Shown here: positions 11,222 to 19,449 of the stretch, piece by piece
How positions within the stretch are numbered: position 1 is the stretch's first letter
Layout: every line of letters begins with the position of its first letter
DNA from: an uncultured Clostridia bacterium
GTDB taxonomy: Bacteria > Bacillota > Clostridia > TANB77 > CAG-508
DNA length: 62,371 nt
NCBI GenBank assembly: GCA_949280815.1
Contig: CASDJM010000003.1
Coordinates: 1 to 62,371 of the forward strand
Reading direction: 5' to 3'
Notes under the pieces: model-generated
What the model saw: only the letters and a program-made list of their open reading frames with translations
What the model was told of the DNA's origin: nothing
Databases searched by the model: none
Translations under genes and position numbers: made by a program

Positions 11222-11258
11222 AAAAAGAACTACTATTTTTTATTTTAGTAATTCTTTG
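11222..11258 (-). terminator. rho-independent terminator, copy 1 of a duplicated 37-bp unit
   Basis: On the minus strand the hairpin AGAATTACTA...TAGTAGTTCT is followed by a T-run, directly after the ATPase stop. It is identical to 12661-12697 apart from one A in the run. Confidence 0.6.
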
Positions 11259-11269
11259 TTTTATTATTT

Positions 11270-12535
11270 CTAAAGTAATTCAATTGGTATTAAATTATTA
11301 TCTTTATCAATTGGAAATATATCTTTTGTTAAACATATTACTCCACCATTCCCTATTTCCATTCCCAATTTTTGCGTAACATCAAAATTCTTTACTGCTT
11401 GTTTTCCTGGGTTATAGCTTTTCTTTATTTCTAACGGATATACCTTATTATTATAGATAATAATTAAATCTATTTCCTTTCCATTATTATCTCTATAATA
11501 ATATAAATATTTTCTACTATCTAAACCTTGGTTTGAAAACGATTTAATAATTTCTGTTACAACATAAGTTTCTAAAATTGCGCCATTAAATGCACTTCTT
11601 TCTAATGTTATACTGTCCATATATCCTGCTAAAAAACAAGCTAATCCTGTGTCCATAAAATAAATTTTAGGTCTTTTTACTATCCTAGATACATTATTGT
11701 TTGAATATGGTTGTAATAAATACACTAATCCTGTACTTACTAAAATAGATAACCAATTTTGTGCTGTCATATTGTTTATTTCTATTGAATTCGATATGTC
11801 ATTTATGTTTAATTCCTGTCCTGTTCTTACTGCGATTGATTCAATAAATTTCAGAAATTTTGTTTCATCTTTTACATTAATAAGTTCCCTTATATCTCTT
11901 TCTATATATGTTTTTATATAAGTTTCAAAAAAGTCTTTTGGTTCTATGTTGGGATTTGAATATAATTCTGGATAACTTCCCTTTAGTATTTTTTCATATA
12001 ATTTATCGACTTCTAATCTATTTGTCTTTTCTCTTTTTTCAAGTTCTTCATATATTGGTAAAAACATCTTATCCTTTTTCTTCTCTATTTCCCTATTTGA
12101 TAAAGGATATAGTTCTAATATTCCAACTCTTCCTGCTAAAGATTCACTAACATTTTTCATGGTATGAAATACTTGTGAACCTGTTAAATAGTATAATCCA
12201 GATGTCTCTAATTCTTTGTTTTCTAAATGTTCCTGTCTTTTCTCATCTACTATTATTTTTATATAGGATAATAATTTAGGTGCATATTGAAATTCATCTA
12301 TTATTAGTGGCGGTTTATATCTTTCTAAAAATATTTCTGGTTCTTCAATAGCTAATGCTCTTATTGATAAATTATCTAAAGATATATAATTTATTTTTCC
12401 TTTTTCTTGTTTTCGTATATTATTTAATAGTGTAGTTTTTCCCACTTGCCTCGAACCTGTAATCATTATAACTGGAAATGCTTTTGCTAATTTATTAAGT
12501 CTTTCTTCTATACTTCTTTCAATATAATCACTCAT
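11270..12535 (-). CDS. AAA-type ATPase (AAA_14 N-domain, DUF4143-like C-domain)
   Basis: 421 aa with Walker A GSRQVGKTTLL, Walker B-like LIIDEFQ, and C-terminal architecture typical of DUF4143 ATPases. Confidence 0.7.
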   Translation of the reverse strand: MSDYIERSIEERLNKLAKAFPVIMITGSRQVGKTTLLNNIRKQEKGKINYISLDNLSIRALAIEEPEIFLERYKPPLIIDEFQYAPKLLSYIKIIVDEKRQEHLENKELETSGLYYLTGSQVFHTMKNVSESLAGRVGILELYPLSNREIEKKKDKMFLPIYEELEKREKTNRLEVDKLYEKILKGSYPELYSNPNIEPKDFFETYIKTYIERDIRELINVKDETKFLKFIESIAVRTGQELNINDISNSIEINNMTAQNWLSILVSTGLVYLLQPYSNNNVSRIVKRPKIYFMDTGLACFLAGYMDSITLERSAFNGAILETYVVTEIIKSFSNQGLDSRKYLYYYRDNNGKEIDLIIIYNNKVYPLEIKKSYNPGKQAVKNFDVTQKLGMEIGNGGVICLTKDIFPIDKDNNLIPIELL

Positions 12536-12660
12536 ATTCTCACCTTCTTTTAATTATTTATTCTATTTATATTATATACTTTATTATGTTTTTTTGCAAT
12601 ATTTTTATACATATTTATACTAACACTATATTTTTGTATAAACATTGTTCTTGAATTATA

Positions 12661-12697
12661 AAAAAGAACTACTATTTTTTATTTTAGTAATTCTTCC
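12661..12697 (-). terminator. rho-independent terminator, copy 2 of the duplicated 37-bp unit
   Basis: Same hairpin and T-run as 11222-11258, located just downstream of the PAS-like pseudogene. Confidence 0.55.
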
Positions 12698-12723
12698 ATA
12701 TTTGTTAAATTCATAGGCAAAAA

Positions 12724-13059
12724 TCACATTTGTAAATTTAATTCAAATCTTTCTATAAAGCCTATCCATTCGCCTTTTTCATTTTTAACTCCTTGCATAT
12801 ACACTCTTTGATTTTTAGAATTTACAAATATAAATACATCTTTTCCAGTTTTTTTATCTCTTCATAAGTGTCCTTTATTTTTTCAACAGATTTTTCATTG
12901 TGACAATCAAATATGCTTTTTCCTATTAGCTCTTTGCCCTTTACGATAATGGGCTTCCGCCTTTTTATTCATAAAACTAATAATATAATCATTGTTTACA
13001 AAAATTATATTATATGGGTAGCTATCTAAAATTCCTTTTACTATTTCTAATTTTTCCAT
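12724..13059 (-). pseudogene. small PAS-like domain protein disrupted by two compensating homopolymer indels
   Basis: Own translation (AAGGAG RBS, ATG at 13059) gives MEKLEIVKGILDSYPYNIIFVNNDYIISFMNKKAEAHYRKG. The frame is lost at a GGG run, continues as KELIGKSIFDCHNEKSVEKIKDTYEEIKK in +1, and returns to frame 0 at an A7 run as TGKDVFIFVNSKNQRVYMQGVKNEKGEWIGFIERFELNLQM. Confidence 0.55.
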
Positions 13060-13101
13060 GTTGTTTTTCTCCTTCAACTACTTGTACTCTGATTTCTTAT
13101 T

Positions 13102-13434
13102 TTAGTTAACTATATCTTGAATCTGATTTTCTAATTCTTCCAATTCTGTATCAAGAAATCCCCAAACCATATTTAAGTTTACCCCTTCATAATCATGGAC
13201 AATTCTATTTCTTAAAGCTTTTAGACCTCTCCATTCAATATTAGGATTTTCCTTTACCGTTTCTTCACTAATTTTTCCCACTAATTCTCCAATTTGACTT
13301 AAATTAAAAACGCAAGCATTTACTGTTTTTCTATCTTCGTTAAACTGTTCGTGAGAATACCCAGTTATAAATTCTTCAATTTCTTCAATATATTTTAAAA
13401 CTTTCGTTAATATTATCTTATCTTTACTTTTCAT
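13102..13434 (-). CDS. HepT-like (DUF86/HEPN) ribonuclease toxin
   Basis: 110 aa with the RX4HXY motif (RNRIVHDY). It overlaps the upstream MNT gene by 11 nt. Confidence 0.8.
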   Translation of the reverse strand: MKSKDKIILTKVLKYIEEIEEFITGYSHEQFNEDRKTVNACVFNLSQIGELVGKISEETVKENPNIEWRGLKALRNRIVHDYEGVNLNMVWGFLDTELEELENQIQDIVN

Positions 13435-13732
13435 AAATAACTACTCCTGTATTTTCTATTTCTTTTTCTATTTTTGAATTTTTATCAATTTCTAGCTTTT
13501 CAATAACATCAACTTCTTTGTCTAGTTTTTCTCTTATTTTATCTACTATAGCAAAAAATTTTAACCCTTTAATTTTACCTTTGCTATCAATTAATATATC
13601 TATATCACTATTTTTAGTAGGCTTATTCTTGGCATAAGAACCAAATAATATTGCTTTTTCAACTTCTGTATTTGCTAAAATTTCATATACCATATTTTTT
13701 ATATCTTCAATGGAATATATTTTTGTAGTCAT
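13424..13732 (-). CDS. MntA-like minimal nucleotidyltransferase antitoxin
   Basis: 102 aa with the GSYAKNKPTKNSDIDILID nucleotidyltransferase motif (GS...DxD), paired with HepT. Confidence 0.8.
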   Translation of the reverse strand: MTTKIYSIEDIKNMVYEILANTEVEKAILFGSYAKNKPTKNSDIDILIDSKGKIKGLKFFAIVDKIREKLDKEVDVIEKLEIDKNSKIEKEIENTGVVIYEK

Positions 13733-13800
13733 ATACTTGTCCTCCTTAATTTCTTCTTTTTTAATATATCACAATTTACTTTAAATTACTATATTTCGGC

Positions 13801-13962
13801 TTAATTATTTTGTAAATATTCTAAAATTTCATTTTTTATTTGTACTTTTTCTTCATAACTTACATCTAAATTTTCGATACTTTCTTTTATTAATAATGCT
13901 TTTACAAATGCTAAATTATGTATATACTCTTTGTTATTTTCTGTATTAATTTTTATCTGCAT
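13801..13962 (-). CDS. conserved 53-aa hypothetical protein (homologue in element E2)
   Basis: GAGGTG RBS. The product MQIKINTENNKEYIHNLAFVKALLIKESIENLDVSYEEKVQIKNEILEYLQNN is about half identical to the 18242-18403 product. It is below the ORF-track length cutoff. Confidence 0.6.
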   Translation of the reverse strand: MQIKINTENNKEYIHNLAFVKALLIKESIENLDVSYEEKVQIKNEILEYLQNN

Positions 13963-14152
13963 CTTACACCTCTTATTTTAAATGTATGCCTACTATTATT
14001 TAGCTATTCAAATATTGGGGTTAATTTTTTACTAACAACTTTTAGGCATGACTTGACTATATAACACTTTATCATGTTATATTTTGTCCTTCACTTTATA
14101 AGAGTGCAATTATAAAATCAAAATGAGCATCTTTTATAGATTTTTTTAATAT

Positions 14153-15136
14153 TTATTTTTTAGCAATATACAATGTTGCTGAACTTGGCATTTTATCAAT
14201 TCTTTCTATTTCTTTAAAGTTATTTTCTTTCATTAAATTTTCAATTTCTTTATGTGTATATACTTTTCCATTGTTTGAATTCATTAACATTTCAACAGCA
14301 AATTGTACTGAAAATTCTGGACTAGCTCTATCTTCATTTAAAAAGAAACTTGTTAAAAATAGTCTTCCATTTGGTTTCAGTATATTATAACTATTATTTA
14401 ATAGCTTATTCAGATTTCCTTCTGGTTCTTGATGAGCTACTGCAAATAAAAATACATCATCATATTTTTCTGTTGGAAAACTAATATTATAGTTACATTC
14501 TTCAGCTATTATTCGCTCTTGCAATTGTTCTTCTTCTATTTTTATATTTTCAATTTTTACCATTCGTAGTAAATCAATCATTTTTCCTTTTACTGTATTA
14601 TATTTCTTTGCTACTGTTATTAAATATGTACCTGCTCCTGCTCCAATATCTAGTATATTATGATTTTCAAAATCATAGCTTTCTGCAATAAATTTAGCTT
14701 GTGATATTGCATTTGCTTCCATTCCTCTCATAAAACTTTCTGCATTATTTTCTGTCAATTCTTTGAAGTTATCTTTAGCAAAGTTTTTATTTCTTATACT
14801 ATTTTCTAAAACTTGATATTTTTTCATTATCGTTTTTGCAAAATCGATGTAGCCTTTTTGATTATATTTAGAATCTTTATTTAATATCTCGTTGTATTCT
14901 CCTAGATAATATCCATTTTTATTTTTATCTATAATTTTATAAAATGTTAATACATTTAATATTGGCTCTAATCTATTTTCTTCTATTTGTAATTCTTTTG
15001 ATATTTGTAATAATGACTTACTCTCTTTACTTAAACAATCAAATATTCCTATATCGTTTGATGAAATAATTATATAGGTTAACTTATAATTATTTACCAT
15101 ATGTTTAAAATTGCTTGTTTGTTCCTTTATATCCAT
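14153..15136 (-). CDS. class I SAM-dependent methyltransferase (O-methyltransferase-like, winged-helix N-domain)
   Basis: SAM motif I is ILDIGAGAGTYL. AGGAG RBS precedes the ATG at 15136 (MDIKEQ...). The listed ORF start at 15157 is an upstream TTG. Confidence 0.7.
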   Translation of the reverse strand: MDIKEQTSNFKHMVNNYKLTYIIISSNDIGIFDCLSKESKSLLQISKELQIEENRLEPILNVLTFYKIIDKNKNGYYLGEYNEILNKDSKYNQKGYIDFAKTIMKKYQVLENSIRNKNFAKDNFKELTENNAESFMRGMEANAISQAKFIAESYDFENHNILDIGAGAGTYLITVAKKYNTVKGKMIDLLRMVKIENIKIEEEQLQERIIAEECNYNISFPTEKYDDVFLFAVAHQEPEGNLNKLLNNSYNILKPNGRLFLTSFFLNEDRASPEFSVQFAVEMLMNSNNGKVYTHKEIENLMKENNFKEIERIDKMPSSATLYIAKK

Positions 15137-15360
15137 TTTTCTCCTACCTTTCAACAAAATTAATATTACTTTGAATAACTGTTTTATTGGTTAAATTCTA
15201 TCATCAATTAACCAATATTACAATTAAATTATCTCTTATGACTAAGCAAATTTTATTATTACATTTATTTATATTATTACTACATCGTAAATTTTACAAC
15301 TCTAAATTATATTTTTTATAATTATAATTTATATCATATACAGTAAAAAATAGTTCACTA

Positions 15361-15465
15361 TTTTTTGCAGGAAAAGGGCGAGTCACAAATCGCCCATACA
15401 CAGCTTAAAAATGAGGTTTTTAACGGATGCACTACAAGAAAAATGGAGGTCAAATGTGAGTCATC
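15361..15465. other. conserved non-coding block shared by E1 and E2
   Basis: Aligns with 22493-22597 through TTTTTGCAGGA..GCGA.TC....ATCGCCC..ACAGCT.AAAAA...GTTTTTAACGG....TGGAG.TCA...GAGTCA. It contains a GGGCGA/TCGCCC hairpin. Confidence 0.6.
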
Positions 15466-15514
15466 TTTTTTGCCTATTCTTTTTACTATACAGTTCTATT
15501 TTTTTCTTATTTCT

Positions 15515-15778
15515 TCATAATTCGAATTCTTCTTCCCTCTTAACATGCTTTTTAGTTTTCCTTTTTGTACTTTTATTTTTCCTTTGCAATGTTATTTTAT
15601 CTATTTTATATTTAGCTTGTCCATTTAAAATAATTGTTTCATTCAATATTCCTTTGTTTTTAATCTTAGAAAATACATCTGCAATATCTTCACAAGTAGC
15701 ATGATAATTTTCTACTTTTACTTGATTTTTCAATGTTTCTTCCTTTTTAGAAAATGCTGTCAGCAAGGAAGGGGTGTT
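15515..15778 (-). CDS. terminal ORF of E1, homologous to the N-terminal part of the E2 terminal HTH protein; has no ATG and is open up to the att core
   Basis: The frame is open from the core to the stop at 15515 and contains no in-frame ATG. The segment EDIADVFSKIKNKGILNETI resembles E2 RDIVTGFFRQIKNNKIIANPI. The C-terminal tail is basic. A possible TTG start follows AAGGAAG. Confidence 0.45.
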   Translation of the reverse strand, partial: NTPSLLTAFSKKEETLKNQVKVENYHATCEDIADVFSKIKNKGILNETIILNGQAKYKIDKITLQRKNKSTKRKTKKHVKREEEFEL

Positions 15779-16008
15779 TCTGCTCCTTGCCCTGTTGTTA
15801 GTTCTATGTTCATTCCTTTTTCTTTAAAATATCCCTTGTTAATAGCTACATATTGTGGTGCGTAGAAAACAGAACGAGTTACTTCATTCACTTTAATATT
15901 TTTTAACTCTACGCCATCTTTATTTTTTTGATTAACAATCACTCCTACCATACTAAATACCATAGCAAGAATAATAATTACTATAATTACAATAACTTTT
16001 TTCTTCAA
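15779..16008 (-). pseudogene. ABC substrate-binding protein, 5' fragment (signal/anchor region)
   Basis: AAAGGAGG RBS and TTG at 16008. The product (M)KKKVIVIIVIIILAMVFSMVGVIV...NIELTTGQGA then hits the att core, and read-through into E1 stops after 7 codons. Confidence 0.75.
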
Positions 16009-16092
16009 AGTTTTTCCTCCTTTTGGCAATGATTTTAAGTAATAGAGATGATTTTGAGAACGGAGGAAAAAATCATCTCTGTCTCAAAATCA

Positions 16093-16468
16093 TTATTTAA
16101 ATTTTTTTGAATGTAGGATAAATTTTTCTAATAACAATACTGCTGCATACATGATACCAGCTACCATACCTAAAATAATTACACTTGCCATAACCAAATC
16201 TAATTTAAACACTTGACCTCCATAAACAATTAAATATCCGAAGTCCTGCTTTTGATACTAAAAATTCTCCTGAGATTACGCCTACTAGTGAAAGTCCTAT
16301 ATTGACTTTTAGAGAATTTATAAAGGTAGAAAGATTAGCAGGTATGACAATTTTGGTTAATATTTGAAACTTATTAGCTTTAAAAGTCTTTGCCATTTTA
16401 ATTACTTCTTTGTCTGTTTTTAAAAATCCATTCAAATTTTCTAATATCGTTACAATTAAGGAAATTGC
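16093..16468 (-). pseudogene. ABC permease (NitT/TauT family), 3' fragment, with a CGG frame break at 16240-16238
   Basis: Own translation gives AISLIVTILENLNGFLKTDKEVIKMAKTF...EFLVSKAGL-(cgg). The +1 frame continues GYLIVYGGQVFKLDLVMASVIILGMVAGIMYAAVLLLEKFILHSKKFK to the stop at 16093. Confidence 0.8.
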
Positions 16469-18214
16469 TTTTCCTTTGTGTTTGCGACTTTTGAATTAGA
16501 AGATTGGGCTATTTCTTGATAATTGTTTGAAAACAGCCATTTTGTGTTATCTTCTATTTTCGTATTTAATAAGCTGATTTCTACTTTTTTACCTTCTCCT
16601 TTCATATCTTCAATCAATAACTTTAAAATATCTTTTTTTAATTTTAAATCTAAACATTCAAAAGTTTCAAAATAATTATGTATAATATCCATTACCAAAT
16701 TTGCATTTTGTTTCTCATGTTTCTTTTTGGTTTTATTTTTTTCTATTCGTTTTAGTTTTTCCTCAATTTCCTTATTTTCTTCTTTTATTTTTATTAGTTC
16801 CCTATTGACAAATTCTACTACCTCTTCTCCCATATTTTTTAAACTATAAATCAAATTTTTTATTTCTTCTTGATTTTTCTTATATTTTTTGTTTAATTCT
16901 TCTTGTTCTTGCTCTTGGTCATTTTCTTTACCTATTGATAATTTTTTAAGTTCTTTCCCAATTTCTGAATTTAGTACAAATAAATCTTTTAATTTTTCCA
17001 TTACTATTTTATCGAAATCTAAACCCGCTATATTTTTGCTATCACATTTTACTCCCTTACTCTTATCTTTTAGTTCACAAGTATAATAAAATCTTCTTGT
17101 CTTCCCTTTTTCTTGTTTTCCTCCTGCCATTTTTGGTCTCATATAAGAACCACACTTTGAACATTTTAAAATGCCAGAAAATAATGCCTCATTTTTGATA
17201 TTGGCTCGATATCTTTTATCGGCATTCTTTTCTATTAATTCTTGCGAACGTACCCAATCTTCCCCATTAATTCTTCCTTTATGAAGTCCCACAGCAATAA
17301 TCCATTGTGACATATCTCTTGTTTTTTCTCCATCTAATTTATTGTATGCCATAAATCCATAGTTTCCATCAAATTTTGCTCGTTCTCCTTCTGCGAAAAT
17401 CTCTTGTATTCCTTTTGATTTAAAATATTGAACGACACATTTATCATTTTTTGCATAGACAGGATTGGTTAGAATGAATCTTAATGTTCCTGCTGAATAA
17501 TTGGCTCCTTGTTTTGTTGCAATTTTATTTTGTAAAAGGTAAGTTTCTAGCTTGGTTAGTGATTTTAATTCTTCAAATTTATGATAGATTAAATCAATAA
17601 CTTTTAGTTCTTCTTCTACTTCTACTAATTTACATGCTTTTTTCTTTTTCTTTTCTATTACATTTTCATTGTCTTGCTCGTAGATATCTATCAATTCATA
17701 CCTTTGGCTAGTGTATCCAGTAGGTGTTATTCCGCCGAAGCCATCTTCCTGTCTTGGCAAGTTCTATCATATTATCTCTTATTCTTTCTGCTATGACTTC
17801 TCTTTCTAACTGTGCAAATACACTAGCAATAAACATCATGGCTCGCCCCATAGGCGTGCTTGTATCAAATTGTTCTTTGATGGATATAAAACTTGTATTC
17901 TTTTTGGTTAGTTCTTCCATTAAATTGGAAAAATTAGCAATGTTTCTGCTAATTCTATCTAGTCTATAACAAATTAAAATATCATAGGGCTCTTTTTCTT
18001 CTTCTGCTAAAAATTTTTGAAATTGTGGTCTGTCTATATTCCCTCCTGAAAAACCTTCGTCTTCATATATTACTATTTCTGTTTCGTATTCTTCTTTTGG
18101 ATAGTTCTTTTTTATATATTCTTTTATTAGTTCTATTTGATTTCCGACTGAATCTCCTTTATCTGTATATTTGGATTTTCTGGAATATAAAGCAATTCTG
18201 ATTTTCTTTTTCAT
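16456..18214 (-). CDS. large serine recombinase (paralogue of the E1 enzyme) with a CGG frame break at 17737-17735
   Basis: The protein starts MKKKIRIALYSRKSK... and runs to ...AKTGRWL-(cgg cgg). The +1 frame continues GGITPTGYTSQRYE... into the 434-aa ORF. The E1 paralogue reads RWLGGDTP at the same place. The stop codon lies 2 codons beyond the att core. Confidence 0.9.
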
Positions 18215-18241
18215 GTTTTACTCCTTGCTTTCTATTCTTAT

Positions 18242-18403
18242 TTATTTTGTTTCTAAATATTTTATTATCTTTTGTTTGATTTCTTCTTTTTCTTGATAAC
18301 TTACTTCTAAATTATCTATTGTTTTTTTGATTAAAAATGCTTTTATAAATGCTATATTTTGCATAACATTTTCTTCTCTTCTATTTTTTATTTCTATTTC
18401 CAT
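18242..18403 (-). CDS. conserved 53-aa hypothetical protein (homologue of 13801-13962)
   Basis: Own translation gives MEIEIKNRREENVMQNIAFIKAFLIKKTIDNLEVSYQEKEEIKQKIIKYLETK. It has the same length as the E1 copy and a GAGGTG RBS. Confidence 0.6.
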   Translation of the reverse strand: MEIEIKNRREENVMQNIAFIKAFLIKKTIDNLEVSYQEKEEIKQKIIKYLETK

Positions 18404-18471
18404 ATAACACCTCTAAAAAAAGTGTATGCTATTTTTTAGGCAATAGCACACACTTTTTATTCTTTTATTTT

Positions 18472-18822
18472 TTAGTCTTCTACTTTTTCTGCATCTATAA
18501 TTTTTTGTATATCTTGTTTTAGTTGTTTAATATCATGATTTAACACATACCATATACTTTTTAAACTAATTCCTTCATAATCATGCACAATTCTATTTCT
18601 CAATCCTTTTATCATATTCCATTCAATAAAAGAATATTTTTGCATAGTTTCTTTTGAAATGTTTTTCACTAATTCTCCAATTTGACTAATAGAAAAAACA
18701 GTTGCATCTATTGTTTTTTCATCATTACAAAATTCTTCAAATGTATATCCTTTTGTATATTTAGTGGCTTTATCGATATATTCTATCATTTTTATAAAAG
18801 AAATATATTCTTTATTTTTCAT
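18472..18822 (-). CDS. HepT-like (DUF86/HEPN) ribonuclease toxin
   Basis: 116 aa with RNRIVHDY (RX4HXY). It overlaps the MNT gene by 11 nt. Confidence 0.8.
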   Translation of the reverse strand: MKNKEYISFIKMIEYIDKATKYTKGYTFEEFCNDEKTIDATVFSISQIGELVKNISKETMQKYSFIEWNMIKGLRNRIVHDYEGISLKSIWYVLNHDIKQLKQDIQKIIDAEKVED

Positions 18823-19120
18823 AAACTACCACTCCCGTTCTTTTTATTTCTTCATCTATTTTAGAATTCTCTATGATTTCTGTTTTTTCAAAAGCATCTA
18901 CTTGTTTGTTAAAGGCTTCTTCTATTTTTGTAATCAAACTGAATAATTTGAATCCCATTAAGGTTTCTTTGGTATCTATCACAAAATCCAAATCACTATT
19001 TTTGTTGGCTGAATTTTTTGCATAAGATCCAAATAGAGTTACTTTATATACAGGCATATTATTTAATATATTTTTTAATATTGTTTTAATCTCTTCTATT
19101 GAATATATTTTTTCGCTCAT
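18812..19120 (-). CDS. MntA-like minimal nucleotidyltransferase antitoxin
   Basis: 102 aa with the GSYAKNSANKNSDLDFVID motif, paired with HepT. Confidence 0.8.
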   Translation of the reverse strand: MSEKIYSIEEIKTILKNILNNMPVYKVTLFGSYAKNSANKNSDLDFVIDTKETLMGFKLFSLITKIEEAFNKQVDAFEKTEIIENSKIDEEIKRTGVVVYEK

Positions 19121-19449
19121 ATCTAGGTAATCCTCCTTTTCTTTTCGTTTTTAGTATAACACGAATCATAAAAAAATGCTATACTTTTTGATTAACTTAT
19201 TGTTTGATGCTTTTGATACTTAATTTTTTACTAACAACTTTTTGGCATGACTAGACTATATAACAAATTTCTTGTTATATTTACTTTTGATATTTGGACT
19301 CTCCTCCTTTCTTTCGCCTTCAATATATAAGAGTGCATTTATAAAATGAATATGGTCATTTTTTTAAAAAATTTTTATTTTTTGAGGTGATTATAACACA
19401 AAAACAGATAATTTTTTCAATTACCTGTTTTGTTATTGTAATATTAAAA

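Follow-up and report, generated by a model that had tools for sequence, protein, structure and literature searches.

Element E1 lies in a stretch of 62,371 nucleotides from an uncultured Clostridia bacterium (contig CASDJM010000003.1 of assembly GCA_949280815.1; this whole stretch is called the window below). Its attachment site was found inside a reading frame that began as the gene of a large serine recombinase (LSR) and continued, across the two joined ends of the element, into an open reading frame (ORF) at the opposite end. In the integrated state the two parts were separated and the recombinase ended in host codons. The same arrangement recurred in other lineages, and full-length relatives of the recombinase carried the second part as a contiguous C-terminal extension. 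We consider it fairly probable that E1 belongs to a family of clostridial LSR elements whose attachment site is embedded in a composite reading frame that is cut at integration and would be joined again in the circle.

The ends of E1 and the reading frame across them

The window was AT-rich (G+C = 28.7%) and belonged to a gut Clostridium-like genome; its closest public matches were metagenome-assembled genomes of uncultured Clostridium. E1 was inserted in a host gene for an ABC substrate-binding protein (Table 1). Its genes were arranged in the order terminal ORF, methyltransferase, ORF of 53 amino acids (aa), MNT/HepT pair, DUF4143 ATPase and, at the far end, the LSR of 611 aa. The 8-bp core GGAGCAGA was present at both ends of the element. 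When the two halves of the host gene were joined, the rebuilt host site (attB) was ACAACAGGGCAAGGAGCAGATGCTGTTATGACAGC, which encoded TTGQGADAVMT. This site was uninterrupted in 77 of the 80 related genomes. Therefore, the ends of E1 were exact and most relatives held an empty site.

The element site (attP) rebuilt from the two ends, TTGTCATCAGAAAAGGGGAGCA-GA-AACACCCCTTCCTTGCTGACAG, was an imperfect palindrome with 28 of 46 positions self-complementary (shuffle P 0.0005), while attB around its own GA read AGCA-GA-TGCT. This dinucleotide was the centre of symmetry of both sites and, as far as the sequence allows us to infer, the point of crossover. A short, imperfectly palindromic attP and an attB with only a small central identity to it agreed with the sites of LSRs. 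With arms of 22 bp on both sides of the GA, the whole attP was placed inside the composite reading frame.

The protein itself had the domains of an LSR. Namely, Pfam matches to Resolvase (E = 8e-35, residues 7-158), Recombinase (7e-18) and Zn_ribbon_recom (1e-12) were found, the motif IYSRKSK was read in the recombinase with its N-terminal resolvase-type catalytic domain, and the sequence matched the solved catalytic domains of TP901-1 integrase and TnpX. The Recombinase domain was followed by the zinc ribbon, as in this enzyme class, and in a model of the homologue P0047 long helices were present at residues 435-526.

The preliminary description of this DNA had proposed that the recombinase ORF crosses the core and that a circle would fuse it in frame to an ATG-free ORF at the other end. 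Both points were borne out. The recombinase frame read through the P arm and the core GGAGCAGA as ...NVLSSEKGSR and then entered host DNA. The host-encoded tail, previously put at about 12 codons, was exactly 11 codons long (CCYDSCVSKSM). It was an out-of-frame reading of the binding-protein gene, and the tails of homologues were likewise host-allele-specific. At the opposite end, the terminal ORF had 87 sense codons with no ATG among them and was open to the core. In the integrated state its frame stayed open through the core for 15 further codons upstream, with no start codon there. Its P' arm had TTG as codon 5 and CTG as codon 6, the positions where many relatives carried ATG, and the same arm held the TGA that terminated the truncated host ORF. 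When position 9353 was joined to 15778 in silico, a single ORF of 687 codons resulted, since the left part was stop-free and a multiple of three in length. The predicted junction sequence of the circular form was TCATCAGAAAAGGGGAGCAGAAACACCCC. Thus, integration would change the C-terminus of the recombinase, as had also been proposed, from 87 element codons to 11 host codons.

An in-frame relation alone was expected by chance in one case of three. The recombinase tail was open for 39 codons, with a chance probability of ~0.024 at this composition, and its 25-codon linker portion contained 1-7 stops in the other two frames. From the core into the terminal region, the other two frames closed after 5 and 9 codons, compared with 87 open codons in frame 0. 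The helix motif of the terminal ORF, EDIADVFSKIKNKGILNE, had the counterparts DIGNLFRKLRNKGVLNE and AISNLSRKIKKKGIVKYE in two further elements described below (L122 and L123, respectively); it was predicted as a helix with low confidence.

Table 1. Positions in the window of E1, its attachment site and the related element E2.
Feature	Position	Strand	Remarks
Element E1	9361..15778	-	6418 bp, 24.9% G+C; flanked by identical cores, gene content from Pfam
LSR ORF, integrated state	9317..11152	-	611 aa; Resolvase, Recombinase, Zn_ribbon_recom (Pfam)
Host-derived C-terminus of the recombinase	9317..9352	-	11 codons CCYDSCVSKSM + stop; integrated state only
Core copy GGAGCAGA, recombinase end	9353..9360	-	Inferred crossover dinucleotide GA = 9353-9354
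attP P arm TTGTCATCAGAAAAGGGGAGCA	9355..9376	-	Read L-S-S-E-K-G-S-(R) within the recombinase ORF; conserved in 11 loci
Terminal ORF	15515..15778	-	87 codons + stop: P' arm, variable linker, helix motif, basic stretch, acidic end EEEFEL
Conserved motif EDIADVFSKIKNKGILNE	15638..15691	-	Sole piece common to every version of the terminal module (alignments)
attP P' arm AACACCCCTTCCTTGCTGACAG	15757..15778	-	Codons 1-7 of the terminal ORF; pairs with the P arm as an inverted repeat
Core copy GGAGCAGA, other end of E1	15779..15786	-	
Host ABC substrate-binding protein gene, 5' part	15779..16029	-	Truncated ORF enters the P' arm, stop TGA 15760-15762
Host ABC substrate-binding protein gene, 3' part	8569..9354	-	
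Element E2	16469..23275	-	In the adjacent ABC permease gene; core GCAATT; related to E1
E2 recombinase, frameshifted	16456-18214	-	
E2 terminal helix-turn-helix ORF	22665-23273	-	Open to the core GCAATT, homologous to the terminal ORF of E1

Relatives with contiguous or divided frames

A search with the fused E1 protein gave 34 close recombinase clusters (78-95% identity), all of which stopped a few codons past ...SSEKGSR. Since their tails depended on the host allele, all of them represented integrated copies. The frame was read through the P arm in each of these 34 clusters and in 12 loci (window included), despite an in-frame indel of 22 codons in the linker. Relatives from phages and plasmids had a local identity of at most ~46%, and of at most ~40% over at least 80% of the protein, and they were uninformative.

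Full-length relatives carried the extension that the preliminary description had suggested looking for among homologues. Namely, P0047, P0056 and P0060 (~50% identity to E1) were contiguous recombinases of 780-782 aa with a C-terminal extension of ~190 aa containing two helix-turn-helix (HTH) domains. The first conserved piece of this extension, SEEISNIFKKVKDKGILTEP, matched CEDIADVFSKIKNKGILNET of the E1 terminal ORF, so that the latter was homologous to residues ~582-621 of the contiguous 780-aa proteins. The acidic extreme C-terminus was also common to both. Moreover, the fused E1 protein aligned with P0047 as one segment across the junction (1-649 against 1-620). We considered the possibility that the 780-aa proteins were artefacts of the circular form and rejected it. 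Their contigs had no terminal overlaps, and at the locus L022 the 780-aa gene was intact in an element integrated inside trmL, with the att boundary ~85 bp past the stop codon. Thus, the recombinase together with the module was a genuine protein architecture. The window contained a trmL-like methyltransferase gene (25993-26493), which was the empty target of this third related element (L022 8213-10705).

Divided frames were found in other elements as well. A complete element of ~11.5 kb (L122) was located in the sporulation gene yabG. At its left end, the 5' fragment of the host gene was followed by an ORF of 180 aa (MTTNKKEQF...) with the helix motif and two HTH domains, and at its right end a recombinase of 598 aa (P0043, 56% identical to that of E1) ran into the 3' part of the host gene. 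Its attP, TTGTCATCAGATAGCACACGCA-GA-TGCTCCACTAGTCTGATGACAA, had the same geometry of 22 + GA + 22 as E1. The rebuilt junction gave one ORF of 772 aa. This ORF was collinear with P0047 from end to end, at 49% identity (1-762 against 1-761), and it also aligned with P0056. Another element in yabG (L123, 5.9 kb) had an E1-like cargo. Counted from the core, its terminal ORF (5879-6262 of L123) had 128 open codons in the frame of the recombinase, while the other frames closed after 5 and 1 codons. In this ORF the P' arm was followed by the helix motif AISNLSRKIKKKGIV and then by a MobC/NikA-like domain. The latter, a relaxosome accessory domain, took the place of the HTH domains, which hints that the module may be connected with DNA transfer.

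The recombinases P0074 and P0087 were of another type. Their tails contained an attP-like palindrome of 46 bp that was collinear with the E1 attP (28 of 46 positions identical, gapless, shuffle P 0.001-0.006), was read in the same frame as in E1 and was followed by the helix-like SEIFKNQK, all upstream of the working P arm. This second, internal palindrome lay ~30 codons upstream of the working P arm (L114 11744-11789 for P0087; L115 7815-7860 for P0074) and could be a fossil or an alternative site. The far ends of the elements of P0100, P0087, P0074 and P0095 were out of reach. Judging from the sequences, the layout with recombinase, attP, helix motif and variable DNA-binding module in a shared frame is found again in lineages whose target genes and modules are different. 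Several relatives (among L026-L033, L122, L123 and L114-L117) were inserted in sporulation genes, that is, yabG and a sleB/cwlJ-like cortex hydrolase gene; by analogy, these targets recall the gene-intervening elements that are excised during sporulation.

From these genotypes the following mechanism can be proposed. In the circular form, the order would be recombinase body, variable linker, P arm, GA crossover, P' arm, helix motif and variable DNA-binding module. In one frame group (E1, the yabG elements L122 and L123, and the P0074 type) this whole stretch would be a single ORF. Integration would cut it at the GA, after which the recombinase would keep all its catalytic and DNA-binding domains and end in a few host codons, and the downstream module would be left at the far end of the element. 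Since the P' arm gives the truncated host ORF a stop that overlaps a start codon, the module could be translated alone. Thus, the state of the DNA would set whether recombinase and module form one protein (687 aa in E1, 772 aa in L122) or two.

Separate starts, weak constraint and the out-of-frame group

The evidence against a role of the composite frame came from an out-of-frame group of relatives, from start codons in the module, from signs of relaxed constraint and from searches for the circular form. The out-of-frame group included the second element of the window, E2, whose terminal HTH ORF was 1 nt out of frame with its recombinase tail. The intact relatives L030 and L031, located in the same permease attB, were also out of frame, so the offset was not a result of decay, and E2 was rejected as an internal replicate of the E1 fusion. 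ICE-like elements (resembling integrative and conjugative elements), found in the same permease attB and in a sleB-like gene, belonged to this group too. The P' arm TGCGACGGTGGTCTGATGACAA was the same in E2, L030, L031 and the ICE-like elements, and the module began inside it at a conserved ATG of its own (MTT..., MTN...). Recombinases of this type (tails ...VA(I/N)RTGEQL) read the P arm in another frame, and their circular form would stop 8-12 codons past the centre. Since the module had its own ATG, fusion was unnecessary for it to work, and it would act in trans. In a rough motif count, ~53 of 117 family tails were in the E1 frame and 22 of 117 in the E2 frame. Accordingly, the split and fused frame of the preliminary description held for one frame group and could not be generalized to the E2 type.

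The recombinase of E2 was broken by an extra C (CTT-C-GGCGGA) near position 17737, at about codon 159. The same frameshift was present in L017, L018 and L019 and was therefore inherited from an ancestor rather than caused by a sequencing slip. In the host permease gene, an extra C (TTG-C-GGACC) at ~23335-23345 shifted the frame, and the same shift occurred in L022 (13334-14144), where E2 was not inserted. The shifted permease frame of the window continued into the E2 terminal ORF to form an ORF of 380 aa (22665-23807). The two frameshifts suggest an old and partly decaying locus.

The E2 genotype raised an alternative explanation for E1 as well. Its terminal ORF might simply be the first gene of the element, encoding a small accessory or regulatory protein whose start codon is in the P' arm and whose translation is coupled to that of the truncated host ORF. 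The recombinase would then do no more than overlap attP with its 3' end, the fusion frame would be a by-product of site geometry, and a fused product, if it is made at all, would have no role. Besides the out-of-frame elements with their conserved ATG, this explanation agreed with the start codons of the 37 E1-type database clusters in which the terminal ORF was compared. A start at codon 5 or 6 was kept in 18 of them (ATG in all but P0174, which had TTG as in the window), the first start was the TTG at codon 16 in 8 of the 37, and 5 began at codon 20. It also agreed with the context of these starts. The host frame, which read Ala-x-Ala across the crossover, ended in four different target genes at the TGA of cTGATGac, and this TGA overlapped the ATG of the module. 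The overlap was TGATG in most relatives and TTGCTGA in the window. In sequence terms, the freed module looks like a gene that is translationally coupled to the truncated host ORF. Furthermore, a circular form would be transient and little protein would be made from it. On the other hand, the window copy, L008 and L017 had no ATG at the P' arm and yet kept the full terminal ORF. Several other facts were difficult to reconcile with a mere by-product: permanent natural fusions of 780 aa existed and were kept intact, the frame was kept in three lineages with different linker lengths and modules, and the P0074 type read the attP-like site and the helix motif as part of the recombinase. Taking both sides together, we regard a first-gene origin of the frame as a serious possibility, though on balance an unlikely one.

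A particular TTG, the one after AAGGAAG (15733), had earlier been named as a possible conserved start of the terminal ORF. This candidate was discarded, as it was absent in L006 and L017. In two E1-type attR junctions from other genomes (P0167 and P0173), a 1-nt difference brought the host protein's N-terminal fragment and the terminal ORF into one frame (...TTGQRSRNTPS...), and the product was a fusion protein with a signal peptide.

Constraint was uneven along the composite frame. The recombinase body had a ratio of nonsynonymous to synonymous polymorphism (pN/pS) of 0.10-0.14 at pS 0.30 in ten loci, and the tail after LLNTKI had 0.7-0.9 in ten loci. For the E1-type terminal ORF the ratio was ~0.9, an estimate of low power from five sequences with small counts. 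Beside intact recombinases, the terminal ORF was truncated, frameshifted or absent in 3 of 8 E1-type loci; avoidance of stop codons in the linker of the E1 clade was not significant (P = 0.16), and the E1 extension had no HTH domains. Most of the 37 clusters kept the frame of the terminal ORF through several indels in the basic stretch and also kept the end EEEFEL, which was partly in conflict with the ratio of ~0.9. In our reading of these sequences, the E1 module would be a reduced descendant that consists of the helix, the basic stretch and the acidic end and is weakly constrained. It would be less conserved than a tightly kept domain without being mere junk. This relaxation and decay of E1-clade copies was also what a separately started first gene would allow. 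Moreover, the three in-frame lineages had common ancestry and were not independent trials, and the frame of the E1 group could be an inherited one-in-three accident fixed by the geometry of the att site.

The circular form was not detected. The attP junction, whose presence in sequence data had been put forward earlier as a check, was not found in public genome, JGI metagenome or viral contigs. There was no fused E1-type protein among 5.8 billion clusters, and a scan of viral and metagenome contigs with the alignment of the module gave zero matches. AlphaFold2 had low confidence for the linker and the helix, both alone and in the natural fusion, and thus gave no hint of docking. With the free-standing module as query, Foldseek gave generic proteins of the XRE-type HTH fold only, such as HipB, SinR and P22 c2.

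If the negative junction search is combined with pN/pS values near 1 in the tail and the terminal ORF, and with the frameshifts of the adjacent permease gene and the E2 recombinase that were common to other genomes, E1 might be viewed as a fixed, immobile relic in which the long tail and the terminal ORF are remnants that have stayed open and now serve no function. However, its recombinase was intact and under strong purifying selection, both att arms were conserved in all loci, and most terminal-ORF clusters kept their frame and acidic end. In addition, E1-type copies varied in cargo and length (3.3-6.4 kb), as expected of an active element, and the site was empty in most related genomes. We therefore consider a relic very unlikely.

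Some features of the cargo deserve a separate description. A perfect direct repeat of 36 bp (11221-11256 and 12660-12695) was present on both sides of the DUF4143/AAA_14 ATPase gene of E1, which thus looks in sequence as if it were a separately inserted cassette. The ORF of ~53 aa (13801-13962 and 18242-18403 in the window) was conserved and located directly upstream of the recombinase in nearly every lineage, and it was also found in L003, L004, L114, L115, L120, L123 and L125. In E1, the MNT/HepT pair and the ATPase gene separated it from the recombinase. This small protein may be a candidate recombination directionality factor (RDF), as an alternative to the terminal module, or a regulator. 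Downstream of the terminal ORF, a non-coding block of ~110 nt was conserved between E1 (15340-15460) and E2 (~22440-22560). The E1 copy contained a terminator-like hairpin at 15376-15395 on the minus strand (GGGCGA...TCGCCC followed by TTTT), and Rfam gave zero matches in the conserved block. The block could be a terminator or a site resembling an origin of transfer.

Comparison with known integration systems

Among clostridial elements, TnpX of Tn4451 and TndX of Tn5397 are LSRs encoded at the very end of small or conjugative elements that use a GA crossover and form a circular intermediate. The joint of Tn4451 reportedly creates a promoter, not a fused reading frame. The only sequence tie to TnpX found for E1 was the match in the catalytic domain.

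Reading frames that are divided by an attachment site have been described for several other integrases. In archaeal viruses and plasmids, the suicidal integrases of the SSV1 type have the att site in the integrase gene, which is split on integration, and a review calls this type exclusive to archaea (PMC8371274). E1 was similar in having the att site within the recombinase gene, which was split on integration. However, the SSV split parts the multimerisation portion from the catalytic portion and thereby inactivates a tyrosine enzyme. In E1, the 611-aa product retained all three domains (residues 7-408) together with the conserved body as far as LLNTKI. Because its catalytic and DNA-binding domains remained together, E1 was not of the SSV type.

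In the mycobacteriophages BPs, Brujita and Charlie, attP lies in the coding sequence beside int, the viral and prophage forms of the protein differ, and the switch depends on this difference (PMC3694055). E1 relatives resembled this integration-dependent immunity in that the module beside attP was an XRE-type HTH protein in most of them. Unlike the phages, which split a repressor, lose a degradation tag and use a tyrosine integrase, E1 split the recombinase and had no such tag evident. The crossover was upstream of the HTH-type module and not within it, E1's own copy had no HTH, and the acidic end stayed with the terminal ORF.

Another precedent in layout was the integrase of phage Mx8, where attP is inside the integrase coding sequence and integration gives a recombinant gene with a new 3' end, converting intP to intX (PMC6070905). 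The E1 recombinase ORF likewise spanned the P arm and the core and exchanged its 3' end on integration in silico, so that the free and the integrated element are predicted to encode different forms of the enzyme. There were differences as well. The Mx8 enzyme is a tyrosine recombinase and its attP is complex, whereas E1 had serine recombinase domains only and a simple palindromic site of ~46 bp. Furthermore, the part exchanged in the E1 family was a separable module that occurred as a free-standing gene in sister elements. Thus, the E1 locus would work like the Mx8 type and is not a member of it.

An attP inside its own integrase frame is therefore known for other integrase types. For LSRs no such report was found in the literature searched, including a term search of a large LSR survey and of a paper on RDFs (PMC12286644). 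This has practical consequences, since LSRs are prized as tools for genome engineering and are usually mined from integrated copies. If the att site is in frame, then an annotated LSR ends in host residues and lacks the part present in the circular form, and the integrating enzyme is mis-described. This would apply to at least 34 close clusters and probably to many more.

Finally, the composite frame can be compared with engineered proteins. The same paper describes C-terminal integrase-RDF fusions that switch serine integrases to attL x attR recombination and block attP x attB, and natural C-terminal extensions are suggested there as occupying the RDF site (PMC12286644). In both cases an accessory protein is, or would be, covalently attached to the integrase at its C-terminus. 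However, the engineered fusions are man-made and contain a proven RDF, while the E1 fusion would be natural and dependent on the state of the DNA, with a putative accessory protein as its module. Since C-terminal RDF fusions redirect serine integrases, a state-dependent tether in E1 would be mechanistically plausible by analogy, and since permanent natural fusions exist, the module does not simply block integration. We tentatively suggest, as a rather doubtful extension of our proposal, that in a large group of clostridial elements the state of the DNA sets whether the accessory module is tethered to the LSR, as a self-resetting counterpart of the engineered fusions, with integration favoured in one state and excision or silence in the other, and that the att arm places the freed module under the promoter of the interrupted host gene by way of the TGATG overlap. 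If true, such a tether would represent a novel solution, of natural origin, to the problem of directionality. The composite frame would also link three layouts as stages of one system, namely a separate HTH gene, a fusion present only in the circle, and a permanent fusion.
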